Positions 24,279-43,342 of a stretch of 64,000 nt of DNA are shown in pieces. Numbering within the stretch: the stretch's first letter is position 1; each line of letters starts with the position of its first letter. The stretch is from Planctomycetota bacterium (GTDB lineage: Bacteria > Planctomycetota > PLA2 > JAEUHO01), in NCBI GenBank assembly GCA_020851795.1, contig JADZCA010000013.1, positions 7,428-71,427 of the forward strand, given 5' to 3'. The notes beneath the pieces are model-generated. The model ran no database searches and was not told the origin of the DNA. It saw only the letters and a program-made list of their open reading frames with translations. Both the position numbers and the translations under genes were made by a program.

Positions 24279-25586
24279 ATGCGCCGCGTGCTCGCGCTCG
24301 CCGTCTCGCTGTCGGTGGCCGCAGGCGTCGTCGTTCCGCGTCCGGCCGCCGCGGGCCCCGAGTCGAAGTACGTCGAGGAGGACGACGACGCCAAGGCCGA
24401 GCCGATGCTGGCCGCGCTCCTGAGCAAGGCCACGACGCCCAAGGCCGCGCTCGACCTCGCCAAGGCCCTGCGCGGGCGCAAGGCCCGTGGCGACCGCAAG
24501 AAGGACCGCGAGACGCTCGACGTCGTCGGCCCCGACGGCAAGACGCGGCCGCTCACGTGGATCCTCCCGACGAAGTACGCCGCCGGCAAGCCCGCCGGGG
24601 TGATGGTGTGGCTGCACGGCGCGGTGCGCCAGCCGGCGCCGGGCGGCGGCGCCGGCGAGGCCGCGATGTTCCGCCCGGTCGTGGACGATCTCGGGATGAT
24701 CGTCGTGGGCCCGTCCACCTACGACGGCGTCGAGTGGGGGCACCCCGCGTGCCGCGCGCTGGTGCAGCACGCGCTGCGGCTGGTCAAGACGTCGTTCTCG
24801 GTGGACGAGGACCGCGTCTACGTGTGCGGCGACAGCGACGGCGGCCGGGGCACCTACGCGACGCTCGAGACGGCGGCGACCTTCGTCGCGGCGGCGGTCC
24901 CGGTGATCGGCGCGCCCGGCCCGGTCACCCGTTACGTCAACCTGCGCAACGTGCCTTGGTTCGCGATCAACGGCGACCAGGACTCCATCTTCGAGATCGG
25001 GCGGGTGCGCGAGCAGGTCGAGGCGATGAAGGCGGCGGGCTTCGACCTGCAGTGGAAGGTCGTCGAGGGCGGCGGGCACGACCCGCGCTTCTTCCTCCGC
25101 TTCGCCGACGAGGTGAGGACCTTCCTCAAGGCCCACGTTCGCGACCCCCTGCCCAAGCGCGTCGAGGTCTGCGTGGACCCGTCGGCGGGGGAGGGCGCGA
25201 CGGCGTTCCCGGCGAACACGATGCGCTGGCTGCGGCTCGAGGAGGCGGGGGCGTCGGAGCGCAACGCGACCTTCGACGACGCGGGGGCGGTGCGGTCGGG
25301 CCTCCCTCGCGCCGAGGCGACGCGCGACGGAAACCGGATCGTCGTGCGCACGAACGGCGTGCAGCGCGTGACGGTGCTGCTCTCCGAGGCGATGGTGGAC
25401 CTCGGCAAGGAGGTCACGGTCGTCGTCAACGACGTGGTGCTCCACCGGGGCAAGGTCGAGCCCGACGCGCGGGTGGTGCTCGAGGAGGGGCGGCGGTTCC
25501 TCGACCGCCGCCTCGTCTTCGTCGCGCGCCTCACGCTCGACGTGGACGCGCCCCCCGTCGGCGACGCGCCGCCCGCGGGGAAGTGA
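24279..25586 (+). CDS. alpha/beta-hydrolase fold esterase/peptidase, secreted
   Basis: Signal peptide. GDSDGG nucleophile-elbow-like motif, HGAV, and a C-terminal His region. ATG at 24279 in the ORF 23694 frame. Confidence 0.6.
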   Translation: MRRVLALAVSLSVAAGVVVPRPAAAGPESKYVEEDDDAKAEPMLAALLSKATTPKAALDLAKALRGRKARGDRKKDRETLDVVGPDGKTRPLTWILPTKYAAGKPAGVMVWLHGAVRQPAPGGGAGEAAMFRPVVDDLGMIVVGPSTYDGVEWGHPACRALVQHALRLVKTSFSVDEDRVYVCGDSDGGRGTYATLETAATFVAAAVPVIGAPGPVTRYVNLRNVPWFAINGDQDSIFEIGRVREQVEAMKAAGFDLQWKVVEGGGHDPRFFLRFADEVRTFLKAHVRDPLPKRVEVCVDPSAGEGATAFPANTMRWLRLEEAGASERNATFDDAGAVRSGLPRAEATRDGNRIVVRTNGVQRVTVLLSEAMVDLGKEVTVVVNDVVLHRGKVEPDARVVLEEGRRFLDRRLVFVARLTLDVDAPPVGDAPPAGK

Positions 25587-25591
25587 CTCGC

Positions 25592-25722
25592 CCGCCCGGC
25601 GAATTCACGAGTCCACGAGGTCGGGGCGGCGGCTTGCGCCCGGGCCGAATCGGCGAGCCCCGACGAGGGCGTCACGTGCATTCGGCGCTCGACAGGCCTC
25701 GTCTTCCGTGAGCTCGGCACGC
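25592..25722. repeat. MITE/REP-like intergenic repeat, copy C (inverted orientation, both terminal inverted repeats present)
   Basis: cggcgaattcacgag ... ctcgtcttccgtgagctcggcacg. The internal core is the reverse complement of copies A and B. Confidence 0.5.
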
Positions 25723-25776: not shown

Positions 25777-27216
25777 CTACGTCCCCTCGGCCTTCGTCCA
25801 GCCGGGCTGGTTGTCGAAGCCGGGGTCGCTCGACCACTCGCCCCGCTCGGCGTTGAAGAACACGGGCGAGCCTGACGGTGCGTACGCCTCCTCTCCGTTG
25901 GGGCCCTTGACCGTGCGGTAGGGCATCAGCAGCGGGGCGAAGTCGGCGTGGATCTGCGCGGCCGTCTTCGCGCGCGAGAGCGCGATGTCGGCGTCGATCT
26001 TCGCGACGAGGTCGTCCACGATCGCGATCCCGCGGGCGTTCTCGTGCACGAGCCGGAGGTAGAGCAGCGACCACAGGCCCTGGAATCGGATCGAGAAGAC
26101 GCACCCCAGCAGCGGCGGGAGGTAGGCGTCGTAGCGGTCCGCCGGGGCCGCGATGCTCCAAGCGGCCCGTGGCCACCACATCGTCGTCCCGGGCATGTCG
26201 AAGTAGGTCAGCGCGACGAAGAACGTCTCGCGGTACGCCACGCCGTTCCAGCGGTACTCGACCGTCGTCGCGCCCGCGCGCACGGTGGACGTGACGCCGG
26301 TGACGCCGACGAACGCGTTGAGGCGCGCCGCCTCGTCCTGGTAGAGGCGCGCGAGGTCGGGGGAGGCCTTCGCGGCCACCACTCGCGCGCCCTCGACGTG
26401 CGGCGCGCGCAGGGTCGGGAAGAGGCGCTGCTCGACGTACTGCCGCGGGTCGAGCGGCGGCCACGCGGTGGTCCCGGCGTAGGTGCTGCCGGGCGGGAAC
26501 ATGGGGGCGGCGGGCATCCGGCTCGTGTCGGTGTAGCGCTCCTCCGGGAACACCTCGATCCACGCCGAGCGGTCGGGCGCGACGACGCGGAACGCCACCA
26601 CGGCGGGCGAGGCGAGGTCGCTGCGGTCGATCGTCCGCGGGTCCTTCCCCGCGATCTTCCACCGGATGCCTCCCTCGACCGGCCAGCCGCTCGGGACCGC
26701 CATGCGCAGCACGTCGAGCACCGCGCCGTTGCGCGGGTCGCGCAGCCCCTGCGGGTCCTGCAGCCGCCACGTCCGGAACACGGTCGGCACGCCGGGCGCC
26801 CGCGCGGCAGGCGCCCCGCCCGGGGCGAGCTTCCCGCCCGGCGAGGTCGTCGAGGGTGGGGGCGCCGGACGGTCGGCGTCCGCGTCGCGTGCGAGCCACA
26901 GCCCCTTGCCGTCCTCGTCGGTCAGCTCGAGGCGGTCGTCGGCGGGCATCGCCCACCGCACGCGCTCGACGGCCTCGCCGCGGGGCTCCGCGACGATCAC
27001 GCTGCCCTCGACGCGGTAGGTGCCCTCGGTCGTCGTCGTGCCTCGGGGCGTCCGCACGGTCCACGCGTAGGTGCCGTCGCCGCGCAGCACGAGCCGCACC
27101 TCGCCGGTCGCGTCCCTGGCGAGCCACGTCCCCGGGAGGCGGTCGGGCCCGGCGCGCGCGACTCCCGCGAAGGCGACGACGAGGAGCGCCACGGCCACGA
27201 TCGCGCGGGTACGCAT
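25777..27216 (-). CDS. hypothetical secreted protein
   Basis: Signal peptide MRTRAIVAVALLVVAFAGVARA. 479 aa. Last gene of the long minus-strand cluster. Confidence 0.5.
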   Translation of the reverse strand: MRTRAIVAVALLVVAFAGVARAGPDRLPGTWLARDATGEVRLVLRGDGTYAWTVRTPRGTTTTEGTYRVEGSVIVAEPRGEAVERVRWAMPADDRLELTDEDGKGLWLARDADADRPAPPPSTTSPGGKLAPGGAPAARAPGVPTVFRTWRLQDPQGLRDPRNGAVLDVLRMAVPSGWPVEGGIRWKIAGKDPRTIDRSDLASPAVVAFRVVAPDRSAWIEVFPEERYTDTSRMPAAPMFPPGSTYAGTTAWPPLDPRQYVEQRLFPTLRAPHVEGARVVAAKASPDLARLYQDEAARLNAFVGVTGVTSTVRAGATTVEYRWNGVAYRETFFVALTYFDMPGTTMWWPRAAWSIAAPADRYDAYLPPLLGCVFSIRFQGLWSLLYLRLVHENARGIAIVDDLVAKIDADIALSRAKTAAQIHADFAPLLMPYRTVKGPNGEEAYAPSGSPVFFNAERGEWSSDPGFDNQPGWTKAEGT

Positions 27217-27299
27217 CGCAGATCCTCCCCGGGGCCCTCATTCTCCCGCGCGCGGGCCGCCCGATCCCACGACGCACGACTGCGCCGGAGGGGGCCCCG

Positions 27300-27326
27300 G
27301 ACGGCGGCGTGCCCTGCGCCGCCGTC
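27300..27326 (-). terminator. hairpin overlapping the stop of the upstream gene
   Basis: gacggcggcg / tgccctg / cgccgccgtc: 10-bp perfect stem. Confidence 0.3.
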
Positions 27327-28506
27327 ACTTCACGTCGCTGCGCTCGGTCGCCTTCGCCTGCGAGTACTCGTCGTCGGAGATCGGGACCACCGAGACGTCG
27401 TCGAACGCGTAGCGGCCCCGCGGCCAGTAGCCGTACAGCATCACGCGCATCCGCGCGACGGCCGGCGTGTTCTTGGTCGGGTGGAACACCATCGTGTGCG
27501 TCTTCCAGCCGGGCGAGCCCATGCGCAGCGTGACCAGCGCGTCGTAGAGCCGGCGCTCCTCGGGGCCCGCCGTGTTCTCGAGCGCCCCGTAGCCGCGCAC
27601 CCACACCTTCGCCGTCCCCTGCGGCAGGTCCGTGCGGAACGCGAGCCGAAGCCGGTAGGGCCTCCCGGGCTCGACCGCCATCGCCTCGGAGTACACCGAC
27701 ACGCCGTGGTTGCCGCCGACGGTGGCGTACTGGTCCTTCTCGGGCACGGGGGTCTTGGGCCACGGCGGGAGGTCCGGGTCCTTCGCCATCTCCTCCTGCC
27801 GTCGCTTCCACTCGTGCTCGTACACGTCGGTGTCGAGAGCGACGACGTGCCCGTGGCGCGCGGGGTCCACCGCGTCGAGGACCCAGAAGGACGTGAGCCC
27901 GTCCATGCGGTCCCAGCCGATCGGGGTCGCCTTGCCGGTGAGCGCCTCCTCGAAGGAGCCGTTGCGGACGAGCTCGCCGGCCGTCGCGGGCGCGCTCGCT
28001 CCGAGCGCCGCGGTGGCCGCCTGGAACGCCGCGACCCGCGGGGCGACGTCGGCGGGGGACGCGCCTGCGGCGAGACGCCGGTCGGGCGCGGTCAGTCGGT
28101 CGAGCGCCCAGCGCAGGAGCGCGGGCGAGCGGAACGTGTACGCGCGGCCCCCTCGTTCCGGGGCGCGGAACCCGTGCTCGGTGACGACGACGACGAGGTT
28201 CGCGTCGTTCCCCCGCACGACCGTGAGGCGTCCGAGCTCGGGTGCCGGCGACGGCAGGAGGAGGACGAGCGCCGCGGGCGCGGCCGCGAGGTGGTCGAGC
28301 GCGATCGAGATCTCGGCGTCGCGCTCCACGCGGACGCACGGCACGGGCTCGCCGTCGGGCCGGTCGGGGAGCGCGAGGACGATGCCGTCCGGCGCTGCCC
28401 GTCGCGCGGAGGCCACGCGCTCGGGCCACGTGGGCCACTCCTCGCCGCGGGCCGACGCCGCGGCGAGCAGGAGCAGCGTGAGGACGAGGGGTGCCACGGG
28501 CTTCAT
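27325..28506 (-). CDS. hypothetical secreted protein
   Basis: Signal peptide MKPVAPLVLTLLLLAAASARG. The start lies 1 nt from the upstream gene's stop. Confidence 0.5.
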   Translation of the reverse strand: MKPVAPLVLTLLLLAAASARGEEWPTWPERVASARRAAPDGIVLALPDRPDGEPVPCVRVERDAEISIALDHLAAAPAALVLLLPSPAPELGRLTVVRGNDANLVVVVTEHGFRAPERGGRAYTFRSPALLRWALDRLTAPDRRLAAGASPADVAPRVAAFQAATAALGASAPATAGELVRNGSFEEALTGKATPIGWDRMDGLTSFWVLDAVDPARHGHVVALDTDVYEHEWKRRQEEMAKDPDLPPWPKTPVPEKDQYATVGGNHGVSVYSEAMAVEPGRPYRLRLAFRTDLPQGTAKVWVRGYGALENTAGPEERRLYDALVTLRMGSPGWKTHTMVFHPTKNTPAVARMRVMLYGYWPRGRYAFDDVSVVPISDDEYSQAKATERSDVK

Positions 28507-28507
28507 G

Positions 28508-31500
28508 TCACTTCCCCGGGGCGGGCCCCGCGCCGCGCGAGAGCGCCTCGTAGAACGCCTTGACCACCGCCTCGAGGCCCGGCGGCACGGGTTCGCGCAG
28601 CCCGGAGAACAGCTCGCGACGCACCTCGGGCGACAACGCTGCCCCCTGCGCGCGCAGCGTGTCGGCCTCGGCCACGAGGGCGCGGCGGGCGAGCTCGAGC
28701 GCGGACTTCACGTCGGCGTGCGCCTGGCGGAGGTCGAAGCCGCGGCCGGCGGCGATGTTCTCCTCGATGCGCTTCATGCGCGCGATCGCGTCGTCCACGT
28801 CGCCCGCGGGCAGGTGCAGCGCGCGCAGCCAGCGCTGCAGGCGCTCGGCCTGCTGGCGCAGCTCGCCCTGGTTGCCGCGGAGCCGCTCGAGCTTGGCCTG
28901 CACCGGCGGCGGGGGCGTCCCGCGCAGGCCCGTGTCGCCCTGGCCCGCGACCTTGCCGCCGCCGGTGGCGCCGCCCCGCGGGTCCTTCGACGAGTCCTTG
29001 ACCGACCCCGCCTCGAACGGCGACTCGGTCTTGCGCGTCGGGGTCTCGCGGCCGCCCTTGCCCTCGGCGGTCTCCTCGACCATCTGCCCGTGGCTCTTGC
29101 CGCTGCGGCCCTCGCCCGAGCGGCCGCCGATCTCGTTCTGGTTGGGCAGCCGGTTGCCCGTGATGCCGCGCGCGCTCATGTTCGAGATCGGCCCGTCCGT
29201 CGCGTCCCACCCCGCGCCCTTGTCGAGCGAGTCCATCCAGGACGACGAGACGTCCTCGACGTCCTCGTCCATCTGCGCCTCGTCGTCGAGCAGGTCGCCC
29301 ACGATGTCCTCGAGCTCGTCGGGGAGGTCGGCGAGCGGGACGTCGTACTCCTGCGGCGGCTCCTCCATGACCCACTTCTCGCGGTCGGGGGTGTCGGGGA
29401 TCCAACGCTCGAGGTTGGTCTCGAGCCGCTCGGCCAGCTCGAGGCCCGACTGCTCGGCGGGCACCGCGAGCTCGACCTTGCGGTCCGAGAGCGCCTCGGC
29501 GGCGCGCTGCACCTCCATGTAGACCTGATTGAGCTCCTTCAGCAACGACCCGTCCGCGAAGTCCTGCGACGGCACCTTCGAGAGGTCGGTGAAGGCCTCC
29601 TCGAACAGCTTGGCCCACGCGGCTTCCTGCGCGGCGAGGCTCCCGAGCAGCGCCTCGTCGCCCTGCGTCAGGTCCTCGCTCGCGCGCTTCTCGACGTCCT
29701 TGGTGGCGTCGAGGACCTTGCGCTGCTCCGAGACGAACCGCGCGAGGTCCTGCGCGAGCTGCGAGAGGCGGTCGGCGGGGGAGCGCGGCGCCTCGGCGAC
29801 CGGCTTGGGCGCGCCCTCGGGCGGGGCCTTCGCCGCGAGCTCGCCGAGGAGCGCGAGCAGCCGCGCGACGAGCCGGTCGTCGGCGTCGCGCGCACGCGCG
29901 AGCGCACCCCGCGCGTCGCCGGGGCGCCTCGTCTCGGCCATCGCGGCGCGCGCGGTCGCGAGCTCCTCCTCCCGCGCGGCCGCGAGCGTCGCCGCGGCCT
30001 TCGCGCCGGTGGGCTCGGCGCGGAACAGCGCCTCGACCTCGGCGAAGCGCGCCGGGAGCGCCTCGTGGCCCGCCCGGGCCTCCTCGGCGCGGCGGGCGAG
30101 CCGACCCTCGCGCTCGTGCTCGGCGTAGAGGTCGAGCAGCGTCCCGACCCGCGCGCGCTCGGCCCGCACGGCCTCCACGAGGGCGCGCAGGCGTTCGAAG
30201 GCCCGCGCGAGCGGGGACCCTTCCGGCGCGCGCAGGTCCTGGGGGCCGCGCACGCGCACGAGCACCGGGGCCGACCGCGCCCGGCTCGTGCGCGCGGGCG
30301 CGCGGTCGTCGGCCTCGGCCACGAAGCGGTACGTGCGGCCCGGCTCGAACCCGCCGGGGTCGAGCACCACCGACGGGCGCTCGCGCGCCGCGGCGGGGCC
30401 CGGCGCGGGGAAGGGGACCTGCCATAGCGTCACCTCCTTCGCCTCGCCCTCGACCGACCCGACGAGGCGCAGCGCCGCGAGCCCGACGTCGTCCTCGGCG
30501 CGCACGGCGAAGTCCACGCGCTCGCCCGGGTCCACGACGAGGCTTTGCGCCGACGCCTCGAGGCGGACCGCGGGCAGCGCGTCCTCGACGGCAGCCCAGG
30601 TCGTCACCGGCACGTCGGCCGCCTCCACGCCGTCCTCGCCGAGCAGGCGCGCCGTCACCGGACCGCCGCGCTCGACGCGGACCGAGGTCGCGAAGCGCCC
30701 GTCGGCGAGGCGCTCCGCCGCCTGCGGGCTCGCGCCCGGGAACGTCACCTTCCCCTCGCGGCACGGGCGCGTGGTCGAGAGGACGAGCGTCGCCTCCGTG
30801 CCGACGAGCGCGGCCACGCCCGCGGGGCCCACGGGGAGCTCCTCGGGCGCGCGTCCGGTGTAGGCGGGCGGGACGAGCCGGACCGCGACGGCCGCGATCG
30901 CCGGCCGGTGCATCACCTCGATGCGGTACCACGGGCTCGCGGCCGCGCCGGCGAGGACACGGTAGCGCAGGGCCACCGCCTCCACGTCCACGCGCGCCTC
31001 GAAGCGGCGCTCCGTGGACAGCGTGCCGCGCGCCGACATCGGGGTGCGCTGCGCCGTGCGGCCGTCCACCTCGACCTCGACGTCGGCGTCGCTGGGGAGC
31101 CTCGCGGCGAGCTCGGCCCGCACGCGCGCCCGCACGTCGACCGACGAGCCCGTCGGCACGCGCGTCGCGCCGGGGCTCACCTCGACGACCAGCCCGCCCG
31201 GCGCGGGCGCGGCCTCGAACGGCCGCAGGAACCGCACGACCGCCGCGCCCGACGCGCCGGGCCACAGCAGCGCGCCCAGCGCCGCGACCGCACCCGCCGC
31301 GGCCAGCACCGTCGCGGCGCGCGCGATGCGCGGCCCCTCGCCGGCCGACCGCGCGTCCACCCGCACCGCCACGTGGCCGGCCTCGGCGACGACCCGCTCG
31401 GCGAGCGAGGGCGCGACGCCGGCGCGGCCCTCGCGCGCGTCGGCGTCGAGCAGCACCGCGTCGATGAGCGGGTTGCCCGGCAGCGCGCAGCGCGTCTCGA

Positions 31501-31771
31501 GCAGGCGCGCCGCCTCCGCGCGGCTCGGGCGCACGCGCGCCGCCACCGAGAGCCGCCACGCGAGCGCGAGCACCGCCGCGGGCCCGAGCAGGACGAGGAG
31601 CGCGAGCCGCAGCGCCGCGGGGAGGTCGAAGGCGACGTCGAGCAGGAGCGCGAGGACCCAGGCCGTCAGCAGCGCCGCGGCCCCGCGGGTCGCCTCGACG
31701 GCGAAGGCCGCGCGGCGGCGCGTGGCGGCCGCGCGGTCGAGGAGGGCGTCGAACGAGGCGGGGCGGCTCAT
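28508..31771 (-). CDS. large membrane-anchored coiled-coil protein (BatD/DUF4175-like component of MoxR-VWA operons)
   Basis: ATG (MSRPASFDALL) overlaps the upstream stop (ATGA). Two N-terminal TM helices, Ig-like middle part, long acidic coiled-coil region, and a Gly/Ser-rich segment. Confidence 0.5.
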   Translation of the reverse strand: MSRPASFDALLDRAAATRRRAAFAVEATRGAAALLTAWVLALLLDVAFDLPAALRLALLVLLGPAAVLALAWRLSVAARVRPSRAEAARLLETRCALPGNPLIDAVLLDADAREGRAGVAPSLAERVVAEAGHVAVRVDARSAGEGPRIARAATVLAAAGAVAALGALLWPGASGAAVVRFLRPFEAAPAPGGLVVEVSPGATRVPTGSSVDVRARVRAELAARLPSDADVEVEVDGRTAQRTPMSARGTLSTERRFEARVDVEAVALRYRVLAGAAASPWYRIEVMHRPAIAAVAVRLVPPAYTGRAPEELPVGPAGVAALVGTEATLVLSTTRPCREGKVTFPGASPQAAERLADGRFATSVRVERGGPVTARLLGEDGVEAADVPVTTWAAVEDALPAVRLEASAQSLVVDPGERVDFAVRAEDDVGLAALRLVGSVEGEAKEVTLWQVPFPAPGPAAARERPSVVLDPGGFEPGRTYRFVAEADDRAPARTSRARSAPVLVRVRGPQDLRAPEGSPLARAFERLRALVEAVRAERARVGTLLDLYAEHEREGRLARRAEEARAGHEALPARFAEVEALFRAEPTGAKAAATLAAAREEELATARAAMAETRRPGDARGALARARDADDRLVARLLALLGELAAKAPPEGAPKPVAEAPRSPADRLSQLAQDLARFVSEQRKVLDATKDVEKRASEDLTQGDEALLGSLAAQEAAWAKLFEEAFTDLSKVPSQDFADGSLLKELNQVYMEVQRAAEALSDRKVELAVPAEQSGLELAERLETNLERWIPDTPDREKWVMEEPPQEYDVPLADLPDELEDIVGDLLDDEAQMDEDVEDVSSSWMDSLDKGAGWDATDGPISNMSARGITGNRLPNQNEIGGRSGEGRSGKSHGQMVEETAEGKGGRETPTRKTESPFEAGSVKDSSKDPRGGATGGGKVAGQGDTGLRGTPPPPVQAKLERLRGNQGELRQQAERLQRWLRALHLPAGDVDDAIARMKRIEENIAAGRGFDLRQAHADVKSALELARRALVAEADTLRAQGAALSPEVRRELFSGLREPVPPGLEAVVKAFYEALSRGAGPAPGK

Positions 31772-32916
31772 CGGGGGCCCTCCGGGCGGCGGACGGCGTG
31801 CACTTCGCGCTCGACGGTGGCGCCCGCTTCGACCGCGATCGCGGCGAGGCGCGGCTCGACCGCCGCGTCGGGCGGCTCCTCGCCGTCGGCGAGCACCGTC
31901 CGTAGCAGGTTCGCGCGGCCGTCGAGCCGCCACTCGTGCTCGAGGCGGTGCGCGGTCCACACGTCCACCGCGACGAGCGCCTGCGCGCGGCCGCGCTCGC
32001 CGTCGAACGTCGTCGGGCGCAGCACCCGCTTCCAGACCGCGACGCGCGCGGCGTCGCGGTCGCCGCCCACGCCCACGAGCCGGCGCGCGTCGTAGAGGTC
32101 GTCGCCCTTCGCGACGAGCTCGGAGAGCGGCGCGGCGTCGTCCTCGGGGACGATCGGACGCGCGGCCGCCGGCGACGGCGCGACGCCGACGAGGGCGTGT
32201 GCGCCGGCGAGGACGGCCAGGTCGTAGGTGTCGGCGGGGAGCCCGTCGAAGCGGACCCGGCCGGCGGTCGCGTCCTCGACGGTCCCGGCGTAGGCGAGGC
32301 GTGCCCGGTGCCCGTACGCGCCCGCCGCCCGCACGGCGCCGCCGTCGCGCAGCGTCACGCGCAGGGTCGCGAGGCGAGCGGGGACCGCCTCGGGCACGTC
32401 GAGGAAGCGCACCTCGCGCGCGTAGACGAGGTCGTCGAGCGTCTGGCCCACCTCGCCCTTCCACTGCCGACGCAGCAGCACCTTGCGCTCGTCGGGGTCC
32501 TCGGCGCCGCCACGCTCGGGCCCGAGGACGCGGACGACCGTCGTGCGCAGGTGACCCTCCGCGCGCTCGCCGCTGCGCAGCACGAGGGTGACGAGGAGGT
32601 TGCGCAGCGGGTAGCGCCCCTCGCCGAAGGACTTCTCGTCCTTGCCGGGCGTCTTGAAGGTGTAGGGCCGCTCGAGCGCCTCGTCCTCGACCCGCGAGAG
32701 GACCGCCGCGAGCTCGGCGGGGTCCACGTCGCGGCCCTTGCCGGTCGCCGGGTCGACGAGGTGCAGCGAGCGTCCCACCGTGAACACGAGCCGCCCCTGT
32801 GCGCTCGTCCCGTCCGAGAAGACGACGCGCCCCGGCCGTCCCGCCTCCTCGGCGGCGACGCGACCCGCGAGCGCCGCGACGACGAGGACCACCGGCACGA
32901 GTCGGGCGAGGCTCAC
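31768..32916 (-). CDS. hypothetical secreted protein
   Basis: GTG start at 32916 overlaps the BatB-like stop (GTGA). Signal peptide SLARLVPVVLVVAALAG. Confidence 0.45.
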   Translation of the reverse strand: MSLARLVPVVLVVAALAGRVAAEEAGRPGRVVFSDGTSAQGRLVFTVGRSLHLVDPATGKGRDVDPAELAAVLSRVEDEALERPYTFKTPGKDEKSFGEGRYPLRNLLVTLVLRSGERAEGHLRTTVVRVLGPERGGAEDPDERKVLLRRQWKGEVGQTLDDLVYAREVRFLDVPEAVPARLATLRVTLRDGGAVRAAGAYGHRARLAYAGTVEDATAGRVRFDGLPADTYDLAVLAGAHALVGVAPSPAAARPIVPEDDAAPLSELVAKGDDLYDARRLVGVGGDRDAARVAVWKRVLRPTTFDGERGRAQALVAVDVWTAHRLEHEWRLDGRANLLRTVLADGEEPPDAAVEPRLAAIAVEAGATVEREVHAVRRPEGPR

Positions 32917-35093: not shown

Positions 35094-37108
35094 GCGGCGT
35101 GCGCTCCGCGGCCGGAGAGCTCGGCCTGCGTGGCCGTCGAGAGGCGCCGTCGCGCGAGGTTGCCGAGCGCCGTCTCGGAAAGGAGCGCGACGCAGGCGAG
35201 CACGAGGAGCCAGCCCGTCAGGTCGCGCGGCGCGCCGCGCGACAGCGTCGCCTCGACGTCCTGCGGCGCCACGACCGTCGCGCCGGGCAGCCGCGCCTCC
35301 CACGCCGCGGGCGTGGCCCGGCGGCCCGTCGCCTCGGCGAGGTCGGCGTCCACCGAGAACGCCGCGTCGGCCCGCTCGAGGTCGTACAGCCCCGCGCGCA
35401 GCACCGGACGCGGTGCCGTGCCGTCGCCGGCCACGCACGCCGGGCGCTCGACCCCGCCGCGGGCGAGCAGCGGGAGGGTGCCGTGGAGCCACGCGAGGAA
35501 GGTGGGCCGCAGGGCGAAGGCGGTGGACGTCGGCTCGAGCGGGGTCGCGAGCAGGAGCGCGTGCGCCGGGCGCCCGCTCCCGCGCAGGAGCACCGGCCGG
35601 CCGCCCGCCTCCATCAACACGACCGCGTCCGCGCGCGTCGCCACCTCGACGGCGTCCTTGACGACGACGCCCTCGAGCCGCGCGCGTCCCTCCGAGGCGA
35701 GGCCGACGAGCGTCGGGTCGGCGGGCGCGACGACGGCGAGCGCGGCGGCCGGCGGCGGCTCGACCGCCCGCGGCGGCACCACGCGCGCCGGCAGCGCGTC
35801 GTCGAGCGGAGCCGGGACGGCGCGCGCGGCCCTGGCGGCACGCGGGCCCGCGACGACGAGCAGGCCGGCGCCCTCGGCGTGGCGGGCGAGCACGGCCGCC
35901 GCGACCGCGTCGGGGAGGTCGGGGGCGTCGTGGACGAGCACGAGGTCGGCGGTGCGCACGAGCGCGGCGTCCGCGTCGGAGGCGCGCACGCGCGTCACGT
36001 GGACGCCCGACACCGTGCCGTCGCCCGTCGGGTCGGCCGCGAGCGCGAGCAGCGCGCCACCCGACAAGGGCGAGGCCCCGCCCGCCTCCTCGAGCGCGCC
36101 GTCGAGGAGCAGGGCCTCGAGGCGCGGTCGCACGACGACGACGAGGTGGCGACGGTCGTCGGGGGCGAAGTCGTCGGCGGGGACCGAGGCGGTCAGGCCC
36201 GTCGGCCCGGCCACGGTCGGCGGGACGGAGAAGGTCGTCTCGCCGGTCCCCGCCGCGGACAGCGCGACGTCGGCGCGTCGCGGCGCGTCCGTGCCGAAGA
36301 CGAGCTCGACGGGGACGGAGGACGCCGCCCCGGCCCGGCGCTCGACGGCGACGGTGACCGCGACCGGGCGCCCGACGGTGACCGGCCCGCTGCCGACCGC
36401 GAGCCGGACGACCGCGACGTCGTTCCCGGCCGGTGGCGCCGTCGCCGCGACGACGACGACGCGCGTGCCCGGCGGCAGCGCACGGGCCGCCGCCTCGAGG
36501 TCGGGGTCGTCGAGCGCGGCGGCGTCGAGGTCGGTGGTGACGACGAGGCGACGGTCGGGCGAGGTGCCGCGCGCGAGCGCGGCCCCGGCCCGGCGCAGCG
36601 CGGCGGCGAGCGAACCGCGCGCGTCGGTGCGCTCGGCGGCCTCGAGGGCGCGCAGGAGCGCGCGCGCGTCCTGCGAGAGCCCCTCGGCCGGCGCCGCGGG
36701 CCCCGCGACGACCCGGTGCAGCGCCCCGCGGTCGCCCGGGCCCATGCGCTCGAGGACCGCGCGCGCCGCCGCGACGCCGCGCGACCACGCCCCGTCGGCC
36801 CCGCCGACGGCCGTCGAGGCGGAGTCGTCCACCACGACGACCGTGTCCGACGACGCGGGGCCCGCGGCGCCGCCGACGCTCGGGCGCGCGAGCGCCAGCA
36901 CCGCGAGCGCCACCGCGGCCGTGCGCAGCGCGAGCAGGACGAGCTCGTGCAGGCGGCGGCGGCGGGCGAGGTGGGGGTCCACCTTGCGCAGGAGCCGCAG
37001 CGACGGGAAGACGACGACCTTCGTGCGTCGCCGGAAGAGGAGGTGCACGAGCACCGGGAGCGCCGCGAGCGCGAGGAAGGGCAGCAGGGCGGGGTTGGCC
37101 ACGCCCAC
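35090..37108 (-). CDS. VWA-domain membrane protein (BatA-like, BatA N-terminal double-TM domain)
   Basis: ANPALLPFLALAALPVLVHLLFRRR N-terminus. MIDAS VVVVDDSAST. C-terminal TM. GTG candidates at 37102, 37108 and 37114 (37114 overlaps the DUF58 stop). Confidence 0.7.
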   Translation of the reverse strand: MGVANPALLPFLALAALPVLVHLLFRRRTKVVVFPSLRLLRKVDPHLARRRRLHELVLLALRTAAVALAVLALARPSVGGAAGPASSDTVVVVDDSASTAVGGADGAWSRGVAAARAVLERMGPGDRGALHRVVAGPAAPAEGLSQDARALLRALEAAERTDARGSLAAALRRAGAALARGTSPDRRLVVTTDLDAAALDDPDLEAAARALPPGTRVVVVAATAPPAGNDVAVVRLAVGSGPVTVGRPVAVTVAVERRAGAASSVPVELVFGTDAPRRADVALSAAGTGETTFSVPPTVAGPTGLTASVPADDFAPDDRRHLVVVVRPRLEALLLDGALEEAGGASPLSGGALLALAADPTGDGTVSGVHVTRVRASDADAALVRTADLVLVHDAPDLPDAVAAAVLARHAEGAGLLVVAGPRAARAARAVPAPLDDALPARVVPPRAVEPPPAAALAVVAPADPTLVGLASEGRARLEGVVVKDAVEVATRADAVVLMEAGGRPVLLRGSGRPAHALLLATPLEPTSTAFALRPTFLAWLHGTLPLLARGGVERPACVAGDGTAPRPVLRAGLYDLERADAAFSVDADLAEATGRRATPAAWEARLPGATVVAPQDVEATLSRGAPRDLTGWLLVLACVALLSETALGNLARRRLSTATQAELSGRGAHAA

Positions 37109-37110
37109 CG

Positions 37111-38012
37111 TCACCGTCCGATCCGCGTGCGCGCGTGGACGAAGCGGGCGAGCTCGGTCGCGAACGGCCGCGAGGTCGAGAGGACGCGGTGCTCGACGCA
37201 CGCCTCGGCCGTGACGCGCCCGAGGCCCCGCAGCCAGGCGGCGACGGCGTCACGGTAGGCGTCGCGGACGGTGCCGGCCTCGACGGGGAGGCGCTCGCCC
37301 GTCTCGGCGTCCTCGAGCTCGACGAGGCCGTGCCAGGGGAGGTCGGTCTCGGCGTCGTCGAGCACCTGCAGGACGGTGACGTCGTGGCGGTCGTGGCGCA
37401 GCCGGCGCAGCCCGTGCGCGACGTCGTCGGGGTCGTCGTGCAGGTCGGAGACCAGCACGACGACGCTGCGCCGGCGCAGCCGTGTCGCGACGGCGCGCAG
37501 CGCGTTGCCCACGCCCGTCGTCCCGTCGGGCTCGAAGGCCTCCAGCGTCTCGAGCGCCTCGCGCACCGCCGTCGGCGAGCCGCGGGCGGGGAGCACGCGG
37601 TCCACCCGGTCGCCGAAGACGACGAGGCCCGCCGCGTCGCGCTGGCGGTGGAGCAGGTAGACGAGCCCGCCGGCCAGCGAGCAGGCGTACGCCCACTTGG
37701 TGGGGCGGTCGTCGGCCCCGCGGAACGCCATCGACGCGCTGCGGTCCACGAGCACGAAGGCCTGGAGGTTGGTCTCGTCCTCGTACTGGCGCACGACGCG
37801 GCGGTCCGCGCGCGCGAGCACGCGGAAGTCGAGGAAGCGCACCGGGTCGCCGGGCACGTACTCGCGGTACTCGGCGAACTCCACGGACGCGCCCTTGTGG
37901 CGCGAGCGGTGCAGCCCGGCGATCCGCCCCTCGACGGGCCCGCGCGGCGACAGCACGAGGCCGTCGAGGGCCTCCTGCGTCGCGGGCGTCAGGTAGCGGA
38001 ACGCGCGGCCGC

Positions 38013-38016
<4 letters not shown>
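37111..38016 (-). CDS. DUF58-family protein (MoxR partner)
   Basis: VLVDRSASM-like motif and DUF58 topology. ATGA overlap with the MoxR stop. Confidence 0.7.
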
Positions 38017-39470
<1,454 letters not shown>

Positions 39471-39473
39471 GGG

Positions 39474-41018
39474 TCACCGGGTCATCGCGTAGAGAACGAC
39501 GTTCTCGCCGACGCGGATCGCGTCGGCGGGGGCGTAGCCGCGGGCGAGCGGGTGCTCGTCGCCCTGCCAGCCGCCGCCGAGGTCGAACGGGGAGAGGAGG
39601 ACGGCGACGCGACCGTCCACCTCGACGCCCTCGAGGTAGGGGGCCTCGAGGTCGGGGCGCTCGCGGCGGAGCGCGGGGGTGTAGGCGACGCGGTCGATGC
39701 GATGCAGCGACGACCACAGCGGGTGGCCCGGCGGCAGCGGCCGGGGCGTCGCCTGCGGCACGAGGCGGCGGATCTCGCGCCGCGCGTGCCCGGTGAACCA
39801 CGGCAGGCCGAGCGACGCGTCGAACAGCATCGTGCCGCCGCGCGCGAGGAAGGCCTGGATCGCGGCGACCGCGGCGTCGGAGAACGAGAAGGCGTCCACG
39901 CCGGCGACGTAGAGGAACGACAGCCCCGAGAGGTCGTCCTTGCCCGGGTCCACCGTGCGGCGGCGCAGCGTGACCTTGGCGTTGGTGCGCGCGGCGAGCG
40001 CCTTCAAGAGGTTGCCGGGGCCGCCGGGGTCGGTGTTCCACACGCCCTCGTGGCGCACCTGCGCGAGGACGAACTCGTCGGTCGCCGGCTTGCCGTCGTC
40101 CTCGCCGTAGAGTTCGGGCCGCGCGTGGCTGCGCCCGAGCGCGGCGTAGCCGAGCGCGTACGCGACGAGGTTGACGCCCAGCTCCTTGGCCGAGCGCGGG
40201 TCGTAGTAGGTCGCGCCTGCGATCAGCGACGGTTCGGCGTTGTCCCAGCCGCCGCCCATCCCGAACTTCGAGAGCACGGCGGCCACGCGGCAGCCGACGT
40301 AGAGCCCTTCGAGCACGGGACGGTCGGTGCCGGCGGCGGGGGGCAGCGTGGCCTTGACCGCGTCGGCGGCCATGTGGAACAGCGGGTGGTCGGGCGGGAG
40401 CACGCGCAGCGGCTCCTCGGGGAACAGCCGCCCGAGCAGCGCGCGCACCGATTCCACGAAGAACGGGCTGCCGGCGATCGCGTCGAACCACACCATCCCG
40501 CCCGCGAGCACGAAGCGGCGCAGCACCGCCTCCTGGTCGCCCGACAGCACGAGGCGCCGGCCGCCGGAGACGTAGAGCACCGGCGTGCGCAGCGGGTCGG
40601 GGTCGAAGGAGGAGAGGCGGACGGTGTCGGCGCGGTACTCCACGCCGAGGACGCGCCCCGACAGCTTGAGCAGCTGCTGCGCGTCGGCCGGGCACATGTT
40701 CCAGTCCTCGACGCGCACCGAGGTCCCGTCCTCGAACGCGAAGTCCGCCCCGGCGCCCCAGACGACCTTGCCGACGAGCAGCGGCGGCGCGGGCGGGCGC
40801 TTGCGCTCGGTGCGGCGCAGCGGGGTCGCGGGCAACGGGAGCGGCGGGAACGACTCGCCACCCTGGATGCGCTGCGGCGTCGCGACCTTGCCGCCGCCGA
40901 CGGGGCGCAGCCAGTCGTCCTCGCCGCCGGCCCGTGCCACGGTCGAGAGCAGCGCGAGCGCCGTCGCGGCGACCGCGGCGCGCAGGAACGGACGGCGCTC
41001 GGGCATGGGGCACCTCAT
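39474..41018 (-). CDS. secreted protein with two DUF4159-like (class-I glutamine-amidotransferase-like) domains
   Basis: Signal peptide. Two internally repeated halves (…VLAGGMVWFDAIAG…PPDHPLF / …LARGGTMLFDASLG…PPGHPLW). ATGA overlap with the upstream TPR gene. Confidence 0.5.
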   Translation of the reverse strand: MRCPMPERRPFLRAAVAATALALLSTVARAGGEDDWLRPVGGGKVATPQRIQGGESFPPLPLPATPLRRTERKRPPAPPLLVGKVVWGAGADFAFEDGTSVRVEDWNMCPADAQQLLKLSGRVLGVEYRADTVRLSSFDPDPLRTPVLYVSGGRRLVLSGDQEAVLRRFVLAGGMVWFDAIAGSPFFVESVRALLGRLFPEEPLRVLPPDHPLFHMAADAVKATLPPAAGTDRPVLEGLYVGCRVAAVLSKFGMGGGWDNAEPSLIAGATYYDPRSAKELGVNLVAYALGYAALGRSHARPELYGEDDGKPATDEFVLAQVRHEGVWNTDPGGPGNLLKALAARTNAKVTLRRRTVDPGKDDLSGLSFLYVAGVDAFSFSDAAVAAIQAFLARGGTMLFDASLGLPWFTGHARREIRRLVPQATPRPLPPGHPLWSSLHRIDRVAYTPALRRERPDLEAPYLEGVEVDGRVAVLLSPFDLGGGWQGDEHPLARGYAPADAIRVGENVVLYAMTR

Positions 41019-43138
41019 CGGGGCGGGGCGGGGGGGCGGGCGACCTCGGCGGCCTCCGGCGACCACGGGAACTCGGTGCGCAGCCGCGCGCGGGCGGCCT
41101 CCGCCCCCGCGGCGTCGCCCTCCGCGGCGCGGCTGCGCGCGAGCAGGAGCAGGGCCCGGGGCGTCGCCGCGCCGTCGGGCTCGACGGCGACCGCACGCTC
41201 GAGGAGCACCGTCGCGCGCCTCGCCTCCCCGACGCGCAGCGACGCGTCGGCGAGCAGCACGGCGCCCTCCGCGCGCAGCCGCTCGCGGGGGAAGTCGGCG
41301 AGGACGGCGCGCGCGGCCTCGATCGCGGCGCCCGCGTCGCCCGCCGCGAGCCACGCCTCGACGGCGTGCAGGCGGGCCCGACGCGACGCCTCGCGGGCGC
41401 GCGCGTCGCCGTCGCCGCGGTCGAGCACGCGCTCGAGCACGCGCGCCGCCTCCTCGGGGCGCCCGGTCGAGAGCAGGGCGTCGGCGCGCGCGAGCGCCGC
41501 GCGGCGGACCCCGTCCTCGTCGAGGTCGGCGGGGCGCAGGCGGTCGAGCGTGGCGAGCCCCGCCGTCGCGTCGCCGCGCTCGACCGCGTCCTGCGCGGCG
41601 GCGAGCGCCGCGCGCGCGGCCGCCGCGGGCGGCGCGTCGGGGGTCGTCGCCGCGAGCGCGAGCGCGCGCAGGCGGGCGTCGGGGTCGCGCGTCGCCGGGG
41701 CGTCGAAGAACGCGGCGAGCGTCAGGAAGACGTCCACCCTCGTCGCGCCGTGCAGGCCGTCGGCGCGCGCGAACGCGTCCTTCGCGACGGCGCGCACGAG
41801 CGCGTCGGACCCGAGCGTGTCGGCGGCCCGCAGCGCCGCGTCCACTTCGCCCGGCGCGAGCCCCGCGGCCGCGGCCTCCTCGAGCGCGGCGCTCCACGCG
41901 CGCTCGCTGCCCTGGGCGAACGGGACGAGCTGCGTCCACACGGGCTCCGAGGCGACGCGCTGCACGCCGTCGGAGGCGGGGCGCCGGCTCGACGTCACGC
42001 GCAGGCGCACCGGCCGCACGGCGCGGCCGACGTAGACGTGCTCGCCCGCCGCGCCCGTGCCGCCGCGCCCGTCCCCGAAGTCCCAGGTGCACGTCGCGTC
42101 GCGGGGGACGCCCACCGCCTCGAGGCGGACGCGCACGAGGTAGGCGCCGCCGACGTCGGCGTGCTCGACCGAGCGCCAGCGGAAGTCGGCCGGTGCGGGG
42201 CCCGTGGCGACCTCGACCGGCCCGGCCTCGGCGGGGACCGGCTGCACCCAGTCGGCGTCCCACAGCACGCGCCAGCGCGGCTCGTCGGTCTTGCGGATCG
42301 CGACGACGGCGGCCTGCGGCTGCCCGCCCGCGACGAAGTGGACGTACTCGAGCGGCGTCGCGCCCGCCTCGAGGGCCACGCGGGTGCGGAAGCGCCCGCG
42401 CTGCGCGGCGTGGGGGCCGCGCATGCGCGACCACAGCGGCACCTCCGCCTCCCGGACGCGGAGGATGGACGCGTCGCTCGACACGGTGCACAGCTCGTAC
42501 TCGCCCGCGGTCGGCACCCGGAAGAAGCCGCGGTAGGTCGCGACGTAGGTGCGGCTCGGGCCCGCGGGGTTCTGGCCGTCGAACACCTTCGGCCGCAGGA
42601 CGCGGCCCTCGACGTCGGTCGCCGTCTTCTCCGCGAGCGCGACCCCCTCGGGCGTGTCCACCGGGAACGGGTGCGGCCAGCGGCGCACCTCGCAGACGAG
42701 CCCGCCGTCGCGCGTCCACGCGGGCGGGCGGTCCTTGGGGTCCGCGCAGCCCCAGTAGGCGGCGTAGCGGGCCCCGAGGTCGCGCGCCTCGAAGAGGAGC
42801 GTGGCGACGTCGCCGGGGCCGACCGACAGCACCTCGACGCCCACCGGTCGGCCGTCGGGGCCCACGACGCGGAGGTCCGCCCCGTCCTTGCGCAGCGCGC
42901 CGTGCGTCGAGACCGTCGCCGACGCGGTGTGGGGCGCGAGCGGGCCCGCGGGCGAGAGCGTCAACGCGCAGCGGTGCGTCCACGCGCGGTCCCACCACGC
43001 GGGCCCCGCGGGGGCCGGCGCGTCTTGGGCCACCGCCGCCGCGCGCGGCGCGAGCAGCAGGGCGAGCGCGACGAGCGCCCCGGCGCACGCTCGGCCTCGA
43101 GGCCGCGGCGCACGGGGCAGGGCACTCGGCGGTCGCAC
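41015..43138 (-). CDS. secreted protein with C-terminal TPR-like repeats (BatC/BatE-like)
   Basis: GTG at 43138 followed by a signal peptide (RGRACAGALVALALLLAPRAAAVAQ). N-terminal beta-rich domain. C-terminal Ala-rich TPR-like helices. First gene of the operon. Confidence 0.5.
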   Translation of the reverse strand: MRPPSALPRAPRPRGRACAGALVALALLLAPRAAAVAQDAPAPAGPAWWDRAWTHRCALTLSPAGPLAPHTASATVSTHGALRKDGADLRVVGPDGRPVGVEVLSVGPGDVATLLFEARDLGARYAAYWGCADPKDRPPAWTRDGGLVCEVRRWPHPFPVDTPEGVALAEKTATDVEGRVLRPKVFDGQNPAGPSRTYVATYRGFFRVPTAGEYELCTVSSDASILRVREAEVPLWSRMRGPHAAQRGRFRTRVALEAGATPLEYVHFVAGGQPQAAVVAIRKTDEPRWRVLWDADWVQPVPAEAGPVEVATGPAPADFRWRSVEHADVGGAYLVRVRLEAVGVPRDATCTWDFGDGRGGTGAAGEHVYVGRAVRPVRLRVTSSRRPASDGVQRVASEPVWTQLVPFAQGSERAWSAALEEAAAAGLAPGEVDAALRAADTLGSDALVRAVAKDAFARADGLHGATRVDVFLTLAAFFDAPATRDPDARLRALALAATTPDAPPAAAARAALAAAQDAVERGDATAGLATLDRLRPADLDEDGVRRAALARADALLSTGRPEEAARVLERVLDRGDGDARAREASRRARLHAVEAWLAAGDAGAAIEAARAVLADFPRERLRAEGAVLLADASLRVGEARRATVLLERAVAVEPDGAATPRALLLLARSRAAEGDAAGAEAARARLRTEFPWSPEAAEVARPPAPPR

Positions 43139-43222
43139 GACGACGCATCCTCCGACAACGCAACGTCCTTCGATACCCCGGACGTCCCCTCCGGGTTTCT
43201 CCCGAATCGGCGCGACGTCGCG

Positions 43223-43240
43223 TGCAACGGATCCGTTGCA
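43223..43240. promoter_or_regulatory. perfect 18-bp palindrome TGCAACGGATCCGTTGCA in a divergent promoter region
   Basis: Lies between the operon start (43138, -) and the octahaem cytochrome start (43343, +). Flanked by imperfect GC inverted repeats. Confidence 0.4.
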
Positions 43241-43342
43241 GCGACGCGACGCCGACGGAAGCCCGACGGCGTCGCTCGCGTTGCGCGCTCGGGGGCGCGC
43301 GCGCGTCGGCAGGCGACGATCGCGGCGTCCTCGGAGGGCGCT

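Follow-up and report, generated by a model that had tools for sequence, protein, structure and literature searches.

A window of 64,000 nucleotides from a Planctomycetota bacterium (assembly GCA_020851795.1, contig JADZCA010000013.1, positions 7,428 to 71,427) carries on its minus strand a dense gene cluster around a MoxR-type AAA+ ATPase with an N-terminal FHA domain. An earlier note on this DNA had described a 10-gene, 'Bat-like' MoxR/VWA operon ending in uncharacterized secreted add-ons. Judged by sequence conservation, the unit comprises nine genes, g1 to g9 (27325-43138), because the tenth, g10, was never found with the cluster in its relatives. In our favored reading, to which we assign a probability of roughly 0.6, g1-g9 are a single operon whose products are a PVC-lineage (Planctomycetota, Verrucomicrobiota, Lentisphaerae) version of the widespread MoxR(AAA_3)-DUF58-BatA_N/VWA-VWA-DUF4175 envelope system and would work as proposed below. 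This variant is defined by the FHA fusion together with g1, g7, g9, the tandem DUF4159 protein g2 and a motif block in g8. Few conserved gene clusters of bacteria are as widespread as MoxR-DUF58-VWA operons, for which no substrate or mechanism is established.

Conservation of the gene cluster

The locus was compared with 80 GTDB species genomes anchored on MoxR, using tblastn with the ten proteins of the window (Table 1). DUF58 followed MoxR in 47 of these 80 loci, a g5-like gene was found in 28, a g6-like gene in 21 and a g8-like gene in 9, and DUF4159 lay nearby in 10. Only one locus contained g1, and this locus was of the FHA type. A core of MoxR, DUF58, g5-like, g6-like and g8-like genes in which MoxR lacks the FHA domain occurs in Planctomycetota, Verrucomicrobiota, Acidobacteriota, Myxococcota, Elusimicrobiota and others; a clean example from Verrucomicrobiales (L044) consists of MoxR, DUF58, a BatA_N+VWA+CARDB+PA14 protein, a VWA+MG2 protein and DUF4175. 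In such FHA-less core loci tblastn detected none of g1, g7, g9 and g10, and g6 lies next to g8 without an intervening g7. Since the MoxR-DUF58-BatA_N/VWA-VWA-DUF4175 core recurs without FHA in many phyla, the locus can be regarded as Bat/Cmd-like.

The complete FHA-type cluster has relatives of its own. Three loci (L087, L089 and L091) hold g1 to g9 in the order of the window, with g8 about 72% and MoxR about 75-86% identical, and two of them (L089 and L091) have 4-nt overlaps at most of the same junctions. g9 follows g8 in L089, L090 and L091, and in the Planctomycetota locus L092 (58% MoxR identity) the same nine-gene set is present with g9 inverted. A still more distant locus, L085 (55% identity), is circularly permuted to g6-g7-g8-g9 followed by g1-g2-g3-g4-g5, and every pair is recognizable by phmmer (g8 at 7e-138, g9 at 5.1e-35, g7 at 1.2e-25). 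This permutation suggests that the system consists of two sub-modules that are kept together yet permutable. In the Verrucomicrobiota locus L086, g2-g3-g4-g5 stand alone at the site, and in L004 and L010 FHA-MoxR lies beside g1-, g6- and g8-like genes with DUF58 not adjacent. On these comparisons, the nine-gene FHA-type cluster is recurrent in Planctomycetota-like bacteria and not a one-off, and g7 and g9, which had been taken for add-ons, are conserved members of the FHA-type system.

g10 is probably not part of the system. A homolog was found neither downstream of g9 in L090 or L091 nor beside the cluster in L085; the genes that follow the cluster there encode a methyltransferase (L090), a multihaem cytochrome (L091) and a flavodoxin-like protein (L085). 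In the window, g10 has a 108-nt gap upstream and its own GGGGAGGA site, and its sole family match, TIGR03066 (Gemmata obscuriglobus paralogous family; residues 5-108, 1.6e-4), is weak and far below the cutoff; taxonomically it hints at Planctomycetota. What remains of the proposed 10-gene operon is a co-directional, tightly packed cluster of nine genes.

Gene calls and junctions

Translation of the minus strand between 25777 and 43138 yields ten open reading frames (ORFs) with ATG or GTG starts and zero internal stops. With a GC content of about 77% in the window, raw ORF lists are over-extended. A frame plot of GC content at third codon positions shows a single coding frame at any point between 25.7 and 43.1 kb with a minus-strand signature throughout, and the frame shifts exactly at the junctions listed in the earlier note. 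On an identical metagenome contig in ENA (PRJEB19935), an independent gene caller gave the same coordinates for g3-g9; the sole difference was a start of g2 at Met5, with which g2 has 510 aa and the overlap with g1 becomes an 8-nt gap. By these three lines of evidence, gene order, strand, coordinates and junctions had been described correctly, with Met5 as an alternative start of g2.

The junctions had further been read as tight coupling of a stoichiometric membrane complex. However, 4-nt overlaps also occur in other co-directional gene pairs of the window (47061/47064 and 61853/61856), and spacing becomes looser in more distant relatives, with intergenic gaps of 1-157 nt in L085. The junctions therefore support co-transcription or coupling, but not specifically a stoichiometric complex.

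Table 1. Genes, domains and junctions of the cluster, in window coordinates.
Feature	Position	Strand	Description
g1	41015..43138	-	Exported, 707 aa; signal peptide, N-terminal region without assignment, PKD-like Ig domain, C-terminal TPRs (YbgF-like)
g2	39474..41018	-	Exported tandem-DUF4159 protein, 514 aa (510 aa from Met5)
g3	38013..39470	-	Cytoplasmic (predicted) FHA-linker-MoxR AAA+ ATPase, 485 aa
g3 FHA domain	39177..39446	-	aa 9-98; phospho-threonine-binding residues intact
g3 linker	38994..39176	-	aa 99-159; Pro/Ala/Thr-rich, poorly conserved
g3 MoxR AAA_3 module and lid	38067..38993	-	aa 160-468; Walker A GVPGLAKT, Walker B LLADEINR (read from translation)
g4	37111..38016	-	Cytoplasmic (predicted) DUF58 protein (VWA-fold adaptor); MIDAS-type motif DRSAS
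g5	35090..37114	-	Inner-membrane protein; BatA_N anchor with two transmembrane segments, VWA (MIDAS DDSAS), large region predicted as periplasmic, C-terminal transmembrane segment
g6	32913..35093	-	Full-length g5 paralog; two N-terminal transmembrane segments, VWA-like MIDAS DDSAS, GATase1-like module, C-terminal transmembrane segment
g7	31768..32916	-	Exported, 382 aa; family without Pfam model, specific to FHA-type system
g8	28508..31771	-	Divergent DUF4175-type membrane protein, 1087 aa
g8 acidic/Gly-rich block	28922..29404	-	aa 790-950; ...LPDELEDIVGDL...SSSWMDSLDKGAGWDA.DGPISNMSA.G.TGN...GGRSGEGRSGKS...GGATGGGK...
g9	27325..28506	-	Exported, 393 aa; possible C-terminal jelly-roll (carbohydrate-binding-module-like) domain; last conserved gene
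g10	25777..27216	-	Exported, 479 aa; co-directional neighbor
g1/g2 junction	41015/41018	-	Possible 4-nt ATGA overlap; hinges on g2 start
g2/g3 junction	39470/39474	-	3-nt spacer
g3/g4 junction	38013-38016	-	4-nt ATGA or GTGA overlap
g4/g5 junction	37111-37114	-	4-nt ATGA or GTGA overlap
g5/g6 junction	35090-35093	-	4-nt ATGA or GTGA overlap
g6/g7 junction	32913-32916	-	4-nt ATGA or GTGA overlap
g7/g8 junction	31768-31771	-	4-nt ATGA or GTGA overlap
g8/g9 junction	28506/28508	-	1-nt spacer
g9/g10 junction	27216-27325	-	108-nt gap, only long gap in cluster

The FHA-MoxR fusion and the DUF58 protein

The ATPase g3 matches the Pfam families Yop-YscD_cpl (4.7e-17) and FHA (4.7e-15) in its N-terminal domain as well as AAA_3 (7.8e-63) and AAA_lid_2 (3e-16), with a secondary match to bpMoxR (9.1e-12). 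Among structures in the PDB it matches 2r44, an uncharacterized protein (2.9e-77), and the FHA domains of GarA, OdhI and Rv1747 (about 1e-6). The canonical FHA residues G30-R31, S45-R-H-H48 and N67-G68 are all present. In 77 FHA-MoxR homologs, G30 and H48 are invariant (77/77 each), whereas S45 is retained in 60/77 and R31 and N67 in 56/77 each; the linker between the two domains ranges from 23 to 117 aa with a median of 58. An N-terminal FHA domain is found in at least 77 of the best 120 database homologs of g3. Where a carrier is named, it belongs to Planctomycetota or Verrucomicrobiota; the locus L010 comes from a genome of Lentisphaerae.

The adjoining g4, which overlaps g3 by 4 nt, is its VWA-fold partner and matches DUF58 (7.8e-52) and VWA_2 (1.8e-13). 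Both g3 and g4 are predicted to be cytoplasmic since neither has a signal peptide or a transmembrane (TM) segment.

A neighbor-joining tree in which FHA and non-FHA MoxRs are interleaved could be taken for multiple gains and losses of the FHA domain. This pattern is largely an artefact, as at least one 'FHA-less' entry, P0037, is a truncated gene call: for the gene at L092 9722-11050, the NCBI call of 349 aa misses an in-frame upstream FHA, and the JGI call (P0293) has 442 aa. True loss of the FHA domain stands only for L088/P0017/P0018. Mis-called starts of this kind imply that FHA-MoxR is under-counted in public annotations, and annotators should be aware that the FHA domain is hidden in some of them. 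The top-scoring non-self matches to g3 (P0002-P0013; e.g. P0010 of Planctomycetales bacterium ZRK34) are tandem MoxR-MoxR fusions of 700-800 aa with two complete AAA_3 modules, and P0010 has a zinc-ribbon-like C-terminus (CPNCG...CWDC).

The membrane proteins g5, g6 and g8

Pfam bears out the MoxR/DUF58/BatA_N-VWA membrane system that had been read from the letters, although not every domain call was matched directly. Tandem DUF4159, FHA with AAA_3, DUF58 and BatA_N were recovered; the TPRs of g1 and the VWA domain of g5 stayed below cutoff, and no direct match was obtained for VWA in g6 or DUF4175 in g8. Specifically, g5 matches BatA (2.2e-15) and the NCBIfam model TIGR02226 two_anch (7.7e-16, above cutoff), and its VWA_2 match is weak (2.2e-5, below the Pfam cutoff). 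g6 has neither a Pfam BatA or VWA match nor a BatA_N signature, but alignment of the g6 and g5 family profiles by hhalign gave a probability of 99.8% and an E value of 1.3e-29 over 649 columns with the DxSxS motifs aligned. The VWA nature of g6 is suggested by its DDSAS motif at the putative metal-ion-dependent adhesion site (MIDAS) together with this profile homology. As g6 is a full-length paralog of g5, the idea of a BatA/BatB-like pair holds in spirit, even though g6 lacks BatA_N. g6 further matches GATase1_like, a family of glutamine-amidotransferase-like proteins (1.4e-4, below the Pfam cutoff), and the '(GATase1)-like protein' 3rht in the PDB (9e-4).

Both g5 and g6 have 670-730 aa, three TMs and a GATase1-like module. 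In the predicted topology, a large middle region separates two TMs at the N-terminus from one near the C-terminus, behind which lie Arg-rich tails. This layout would place the VWA and GATase1-like parts in the periplasm. For g5, the prediction is consistent with the TIGR02226 match and with Borrelia BB0173, whose VWA domain has been shown experimentally to lie in the periplasm (PMC5700661). The periplasmic orientation of the g5 VWA domain is thus suggested by positive-inside residues and by analogy with BB0173.

For g8 itself there was no Pfam match. However, DUF4175 was found for 4/7 aligned g8 homologs (best 5.6e-13), P0128, which matches g8 with an E value of 3.9e-26, carries PF13779, and the synteny of g8 is the same as that of the DUF4175 proteins of core loci, downstream of the VWA membrane proteins. 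An AlphaFold2 model of g8 (predicted local distance difference test, pLDDT, about 85 for residues 1-510) has a TM hairpin (residues 30-72), after which come a small helical domain on the cytoplasmic side, a third TM (149-169) and three Ig-like domains (195-507). The remainder is a long stalk of helices, a segment of low confidence and, at the C-terminus, a helical bundle. Compared with the PDB, the model matched generic multi-Ig and macroglobulin domains only. Across distant FHA-type orthologs, the acidic/Gly-rich block at residues 790-950 ranks among the best-conserved parts of g8. The window shares it with L092, L085, P0126 and P0127, and looser versions occur in L004 and P0128, whereas the DUF4175 proteins of the FHA-less loci L044, L011, L003, L080 and L026 lack it. 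Most of the block has a pLDDT of 30-50. A Walker-A-like GEGRSGKS in g8 is a chance occurrence that is not conserved in homologs.

The exported proteins g1, g2, g7 and g9

g1 starts with GTG, 9 nt downstream of GGAGGA. Its matches to PKD_4 (6.4e-5) and TPR_16 (6.9e-6) in Pfam and to tol_pal_ybgF in NCBIfam (1.7e-8, residues 588-699) are all below cutoff, and a PA14 domain suspected by eye found no Pfam support. Homologs of g1 lie directly upstream of g2 in L083, L084, L085, L087, L091 and L092, and g2 in turn lies directly upstream of FHA-MoxR in 8 relatives. g2 matches DUF4159 (PF13709) in two stretches (6.6e-58), its internal repeat is also seen by tblastn, and in the PDB it matches the uncharacterized Hoch_4089 (4i66, 2.5e-8). 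The N-terminus of the mature protein (residues 33-75, window ~40800-40920) bears the motif EDDWLRP...PLPLPATPLRRTERKR, also written EDDWLRPIG...PQRI.GGE..PPLPLPATPLRRTERKR, which is kept across L083-L092, as far as the Verrucomicrobiota locus L086 with 57% GC. Although the g2 of the window contains ERRPFLRAA, Tat export was rejected because its homologs show ordinary Sec-type signal peptides.

None of g7-g10 matched a Pfam or NCBIfam family above cutoff. The g7 family, for which Pfam has no model, counts 379 clusters (50% identity, E<=1e-3) in a set of 1.84 billion representatives; its near-invariant residues include G41, K95, P103 and G154. An AlphaFold2 model of g7 has a mean pLDDT of 58, rising to about 80 for residues 180-376, which form a beta-sandwich plus a helix with a curved sheet. 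No significant match to this confident C-terminal half was found in the PDB. g9 weakly matches a chain of 4d0q, a hyaluronate lyase (E 0.018). The g9 homolog in L085 (L085 5056-6138) carries an additional C-terminal domain resembling type II secretion pseudopilins (T2SSG, 2.4e-14), which the g9 of the window lacks.

Discussion

The operon cmdA-D of Rhizobium leguminosarum (RL3499-RL3502), reportedly presented by Vanderlinde and colleagues in 2011 as a 'broadly conserved operon', is reported to share with the window a MoxR-proper-type AAA_3 ATPase, a DUF58 protein, a TIGR02226/BatA_N double-TM protein and, with g8 as the probable counterpart, a large DUF4175-type protein. For both, a part in envelope integrity and morphology is expected. 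Compared with it, the window adds an FHA domain on MoxR, a second g5-like paralog, a PKD-TPR protein and a tandem exported DUF4159 protein, as well as g7 and g9, two exported families without assignment, and, within the DUF4175-type protein, the acidic/Gly-rich block. We could reconstruct a Cmd-like core in Verrucomicrobiales, Isosphaeraceae, Acidobacteriota and other loci; the alphaproteobacterial comparison loci L051 and L068 showed no clean cmd-like operon. By gene content, the locus appears to fit this Cmd-like core with its DUF4175-type protein better than a classical BatA-E operon. An envelope/morphology mutant phenotype for a Cmd-like core is known only in R. leguminosarum (cited in PMC5700661).

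In the MoxR/midasin/chelatase clade, VWA proteins have been modeled as metal-dependent adaptors of the ATPase (PMC3495828), and on this ground we propose DUF58 as the bridge from the MoxR ring to the membrane proteins. A cytoplasmic MoxR ring (g3) with its DUF58 adaptor (g4) would drive the ATP-dependent assembly or remodeling of an inner-membrane complex of the three-TM paralogs g5 and g6 and the DUF4175-type g8, with the VWA MIDAS domains of g5 and g6 facing the periplasm. On the cytoplasmic side, DUF58/MoxR could grip these membrane proteins only at the small g8 domain, at the short g5 and g6 tails and at the BatA_N loop, which is conserved. Hydrolysis of ATP could then lead to assembly or a conformational change of the periplasmic VWA/Ig/GATase1-like complex and of the g8 stalk. 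The exported proteins g1, g2, g7 and g9 may dock on this periplasmic scaffold; candidate contacts are the g1 TPRs and conserved linear motifs in g2 and g8. The MIDAS sites in the periplasm may in addition hold the acidic g8 segment. Finally, the FHA domain of g3 would tether or gate the ATPase at a phospho-threonine mark set by a Ser/Thr kinase encoded elsewhere and thereby make envelope remodeling responsive to kinase signaling. The physiological output is probably envelope integrity or stress tolerance, by analogy with cmd mutants of Rhizobium and with MoxR mutants of Bat systems, Francisella and Riemerella.

FHA domains couple several envelope machines to Ser/Thr-kinase marks: Fha1/TagH-PpkA of type VI secretion systems (T6SS), mycobacterial FhaA/FipA, Rv1747 and GltG of Myxococcus. 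None of these is known to fuse FHA to a MoxR AAA+ motor, and a full-text literature search for MoxR with FHA returned no description of such a fusion. The similarity of g3 to the FHA parts of FhaB/FipA, TagH and GltG in NCBIfam is weak, concerns the FHA fold only and is far below the family cutoffs. A functional precedent comes from the PFNA operon of Bifidobacterium (pkb2-fn3-aaa_atp-duf58-tgm-prpC-...-fha), in which the Ser/Thr kinase Pkb2 phosphorylates a MoxR-proper-subfamily ATPase (PMC8430577). Both systems have such an ATPase and DUF58, and the tie to Ser/Thr phospho-signaling that has been shown in PFNA is suggested here by the FHA domain. In PFNA, however, a Gram-positive host encodes the kinase, the PP2C phosphatase PrpC and the FHA protein in cis but by separate genes, with FN3 and transglutaminase partners (PMC8430577), whereas in the window FHA is fused to MoxR, no linked kinase was found and the partners are others. 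The earlier note had derived Ser/Thr-kinase control from the fusion. The fusion is real, and as its phospho-threonine-binding residues are intact, a link to such signaling can reasonably be inferred; no linked kinase and the FHA-less form of a close relative stand on the other side.

Several points weigh against the favored reading and in particular against its signaling part. The relative L088 has the same operon with an FHA-less MoxR, and the stop of g2 lies there 6 nt before the MoxR start (L088 1427-1434). This locus is very close to the window (84% MoxR and 86% g2 identity) and the FHA-less form is present in assemblies from two sources (P0017 and P0018), which argues that FHA is a dispensable regulatory add-on. 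About 16/77 FHA-MoxR homologs have degenerate binding residues (R to S, S to L). Regular expressions found no kinase or PP2C gene in the window, Pfam assigned only unrelated functions to 10 neighboring genes, and the gene tables of the relatives' loci contained no kinase or phosphatase. A search of the g3 linker and of the loops and tails that g5, g6 and g8 expose to the cytoplasm found no conserved Thr that could serve as FHA ligand. The AlphaFold2 models of g7 and g8 were built on shallow alignments of 11-13 sequences. With MoxR and DUF58 in the cytoplasm and most of the machinery in the periplasm, the transmission of energy across the membrane is a conjecture, and what even the classical Bat and Cmd systems do is still called unclear (PMC5700661).

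The FHA domain could alternatively be a phospho-independent module for protein-protein contacts or oligomerization, like the cytoplasmic domain of YscD in type III secretion systems, in which case there would be no Ser/Thr-kinase control. Yop-YscD_cpl is indeed the best Pfam score of the N-terminal domain, the degenerate homologs have lost the Arg and Ser binding residues, no locus examined links a kinase or phosphatase by regular expressions in the window or by the relatives' gene tables, and L088 has lost FHA with the operon retained. The full R/S/H/N set for phospho-threonine binding in the window protein and in 56-60/77 homologs, the matches to bona fide phospho-threonine readers such as GarA, OdhI and Rv1747 and the precedent for kinase-MoxR coupling (PMC8430577) speak for a reader instead. 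We therefore consider a purely structural FHA domain possible but rather unlikely.

The favored reading also has to be distinguished from a classical Bacteroides-type BatA-E (aerotolerance) operon that serves oxidative-stress tolerance. Classical BatA and BatB have about 330 aa, whereas g5 and g6 are twice that length and carry in addition Ig-like and GATase1-like modules and a TM at the C-terminus. What the window has in common with BatI (BatA-E) of B. fragilis and with the bat loci of Leptospira and Borrelia is MoxR and DUF58 upstream of membrane-anchored VWA proteins of the BatA type, here g5 with its BatA N-terminal domain and VWA, a TPR partner (g1), and a VWA domain that faces the periplasm, as found for BB0173 and predicted here (PMC5700661). 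Neither BatD nor the SH3 domain of BatE was detected in any of the ten proteins in Pfam or NCBIfam at E<=0.01, and the cluster holds DUF4159, a DUF4175-type protein, the two unassigned families g7 and g9, and FHA on MoxR. The aerotolerance mechanism is moreover unproven even for Bat operons (PMC5700661). The label 'Bat-like' consequently does not hold in the BatA-E sense, and an operon of this classical type is improbable here. As for a second, BatB-like membrane VWA protein, g6 is a paralog of g5 with aligned DxSxS motifs but has no Pfam VWA or BatA match. The core of MoxR, DUF58 and BatA_N/VWA is common to the window and Bat operons; the BatD and BatE features are not.

For MoxR-vWA-YebA(TGL) operons, in which TGL denotes a transglutaminase-like domain, it has been proposed that MoxR unfolds substrates recruited by DUF58 in a membrane-proximal machine for protein quality control or degradation, and the MoxR-DUF58 pair of the window is the same as in those operons (PMC3495828). 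Yet Pfam and NCBIfam detected no peptidase or transglutaminase-like domain in the ten proteins, and the modules found on the partners (VWA, Ig-like, TPR, DUF4159) are of structural or adhesive kinds; such a machine, too, is improbable. We regard an invader-sensing MoxR-vWA conflict or defense system, be it ternary (Kaur et al. 2020) or of the Esr type, as very improbable. FHA and kinase components do occur in MoxR-vWA systems (PMC7159879; PMC13622651, actinobacterial Esr pathway), and g3 has its secondary match to bpMoxR, but its AAA_3 match is far stronger, Pfam and NCBIfam found no beta-propeller, effector or toxin domain in the ten proteins, PADLOC gave zero defense-system matches, many phyla keep the core in synteny, in the manner of a housekeeping envelope system, and conflict systems carry FHA on vWA or effector components, not on MoxR (PMC7159879).

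A bolder version of the envelope-system reading, which we put forward as speculative and rather doubtful, is that the nine-gene module is a kinase-gated, envelope-spanning remodeling machine specific to Planctomycetota, Verrucomicrobiota and Lentisphaerae, with g1, g2, g7, g9 and the g8 block as lineage-specific periplasmic parts. If so, the module would adapt an ancient MoxR/DUF58/VWA/DUF4175 system to bacteria with an unusual envelope, shape control or division, and the phospho-ligand of the FHA domain would be the first direct handle on what MoxR-proper-subfamily ATPases act on. As a natural 'Rosetta stone', the fusion of a reader with a motor predicts a phosphorylated partner that recruits the ATPase, and hence opens a route to the client of the system. 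The nine-gene set, the two families without a Pfam model and the motif block are concrete genetic targets in tractable Planctomycetota and Verrucomicrobiota.

Flanking regions and further observations

On one side the cluster is bounded by a convergent gene that ends near 25586-25711, on the other by a divergent multihaem-cytochrome/HEAT gene (~43418-45256, +). A scan of the locus for promoter and terminator consensus sequences gave no signal above chance in either direction and is uninformative at 77% GC, and Rfam and tRNA scans of the window returned nothing. Directly 3' of the g9 stop lies a perfect 9-bp GC hairpin, ACGGCGGCG...CGCCGCCGU (window 27296-27324), without a U-tract. An intrinsic terminator after g9 was rejected, as the folding energy of this hairpin is not significant against shuffled sequences (z -1.1). 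Between g1 and the divergent gene, nested imperfect inverted repeats at 43207-43275 (core palindrome TGCAACGGATCCGTTGCA, 43223-43240) could be an operator or a structure of the 5' untranslated region. Multihaem c-type cytochrome genes lie near the cluster, at 43418-45256 (+), with HEAT repeats, and at 17281-18720 (+), NapC/NirT-like; in the relative L091, a multihaem cytochrome gene likewise follows the operon.

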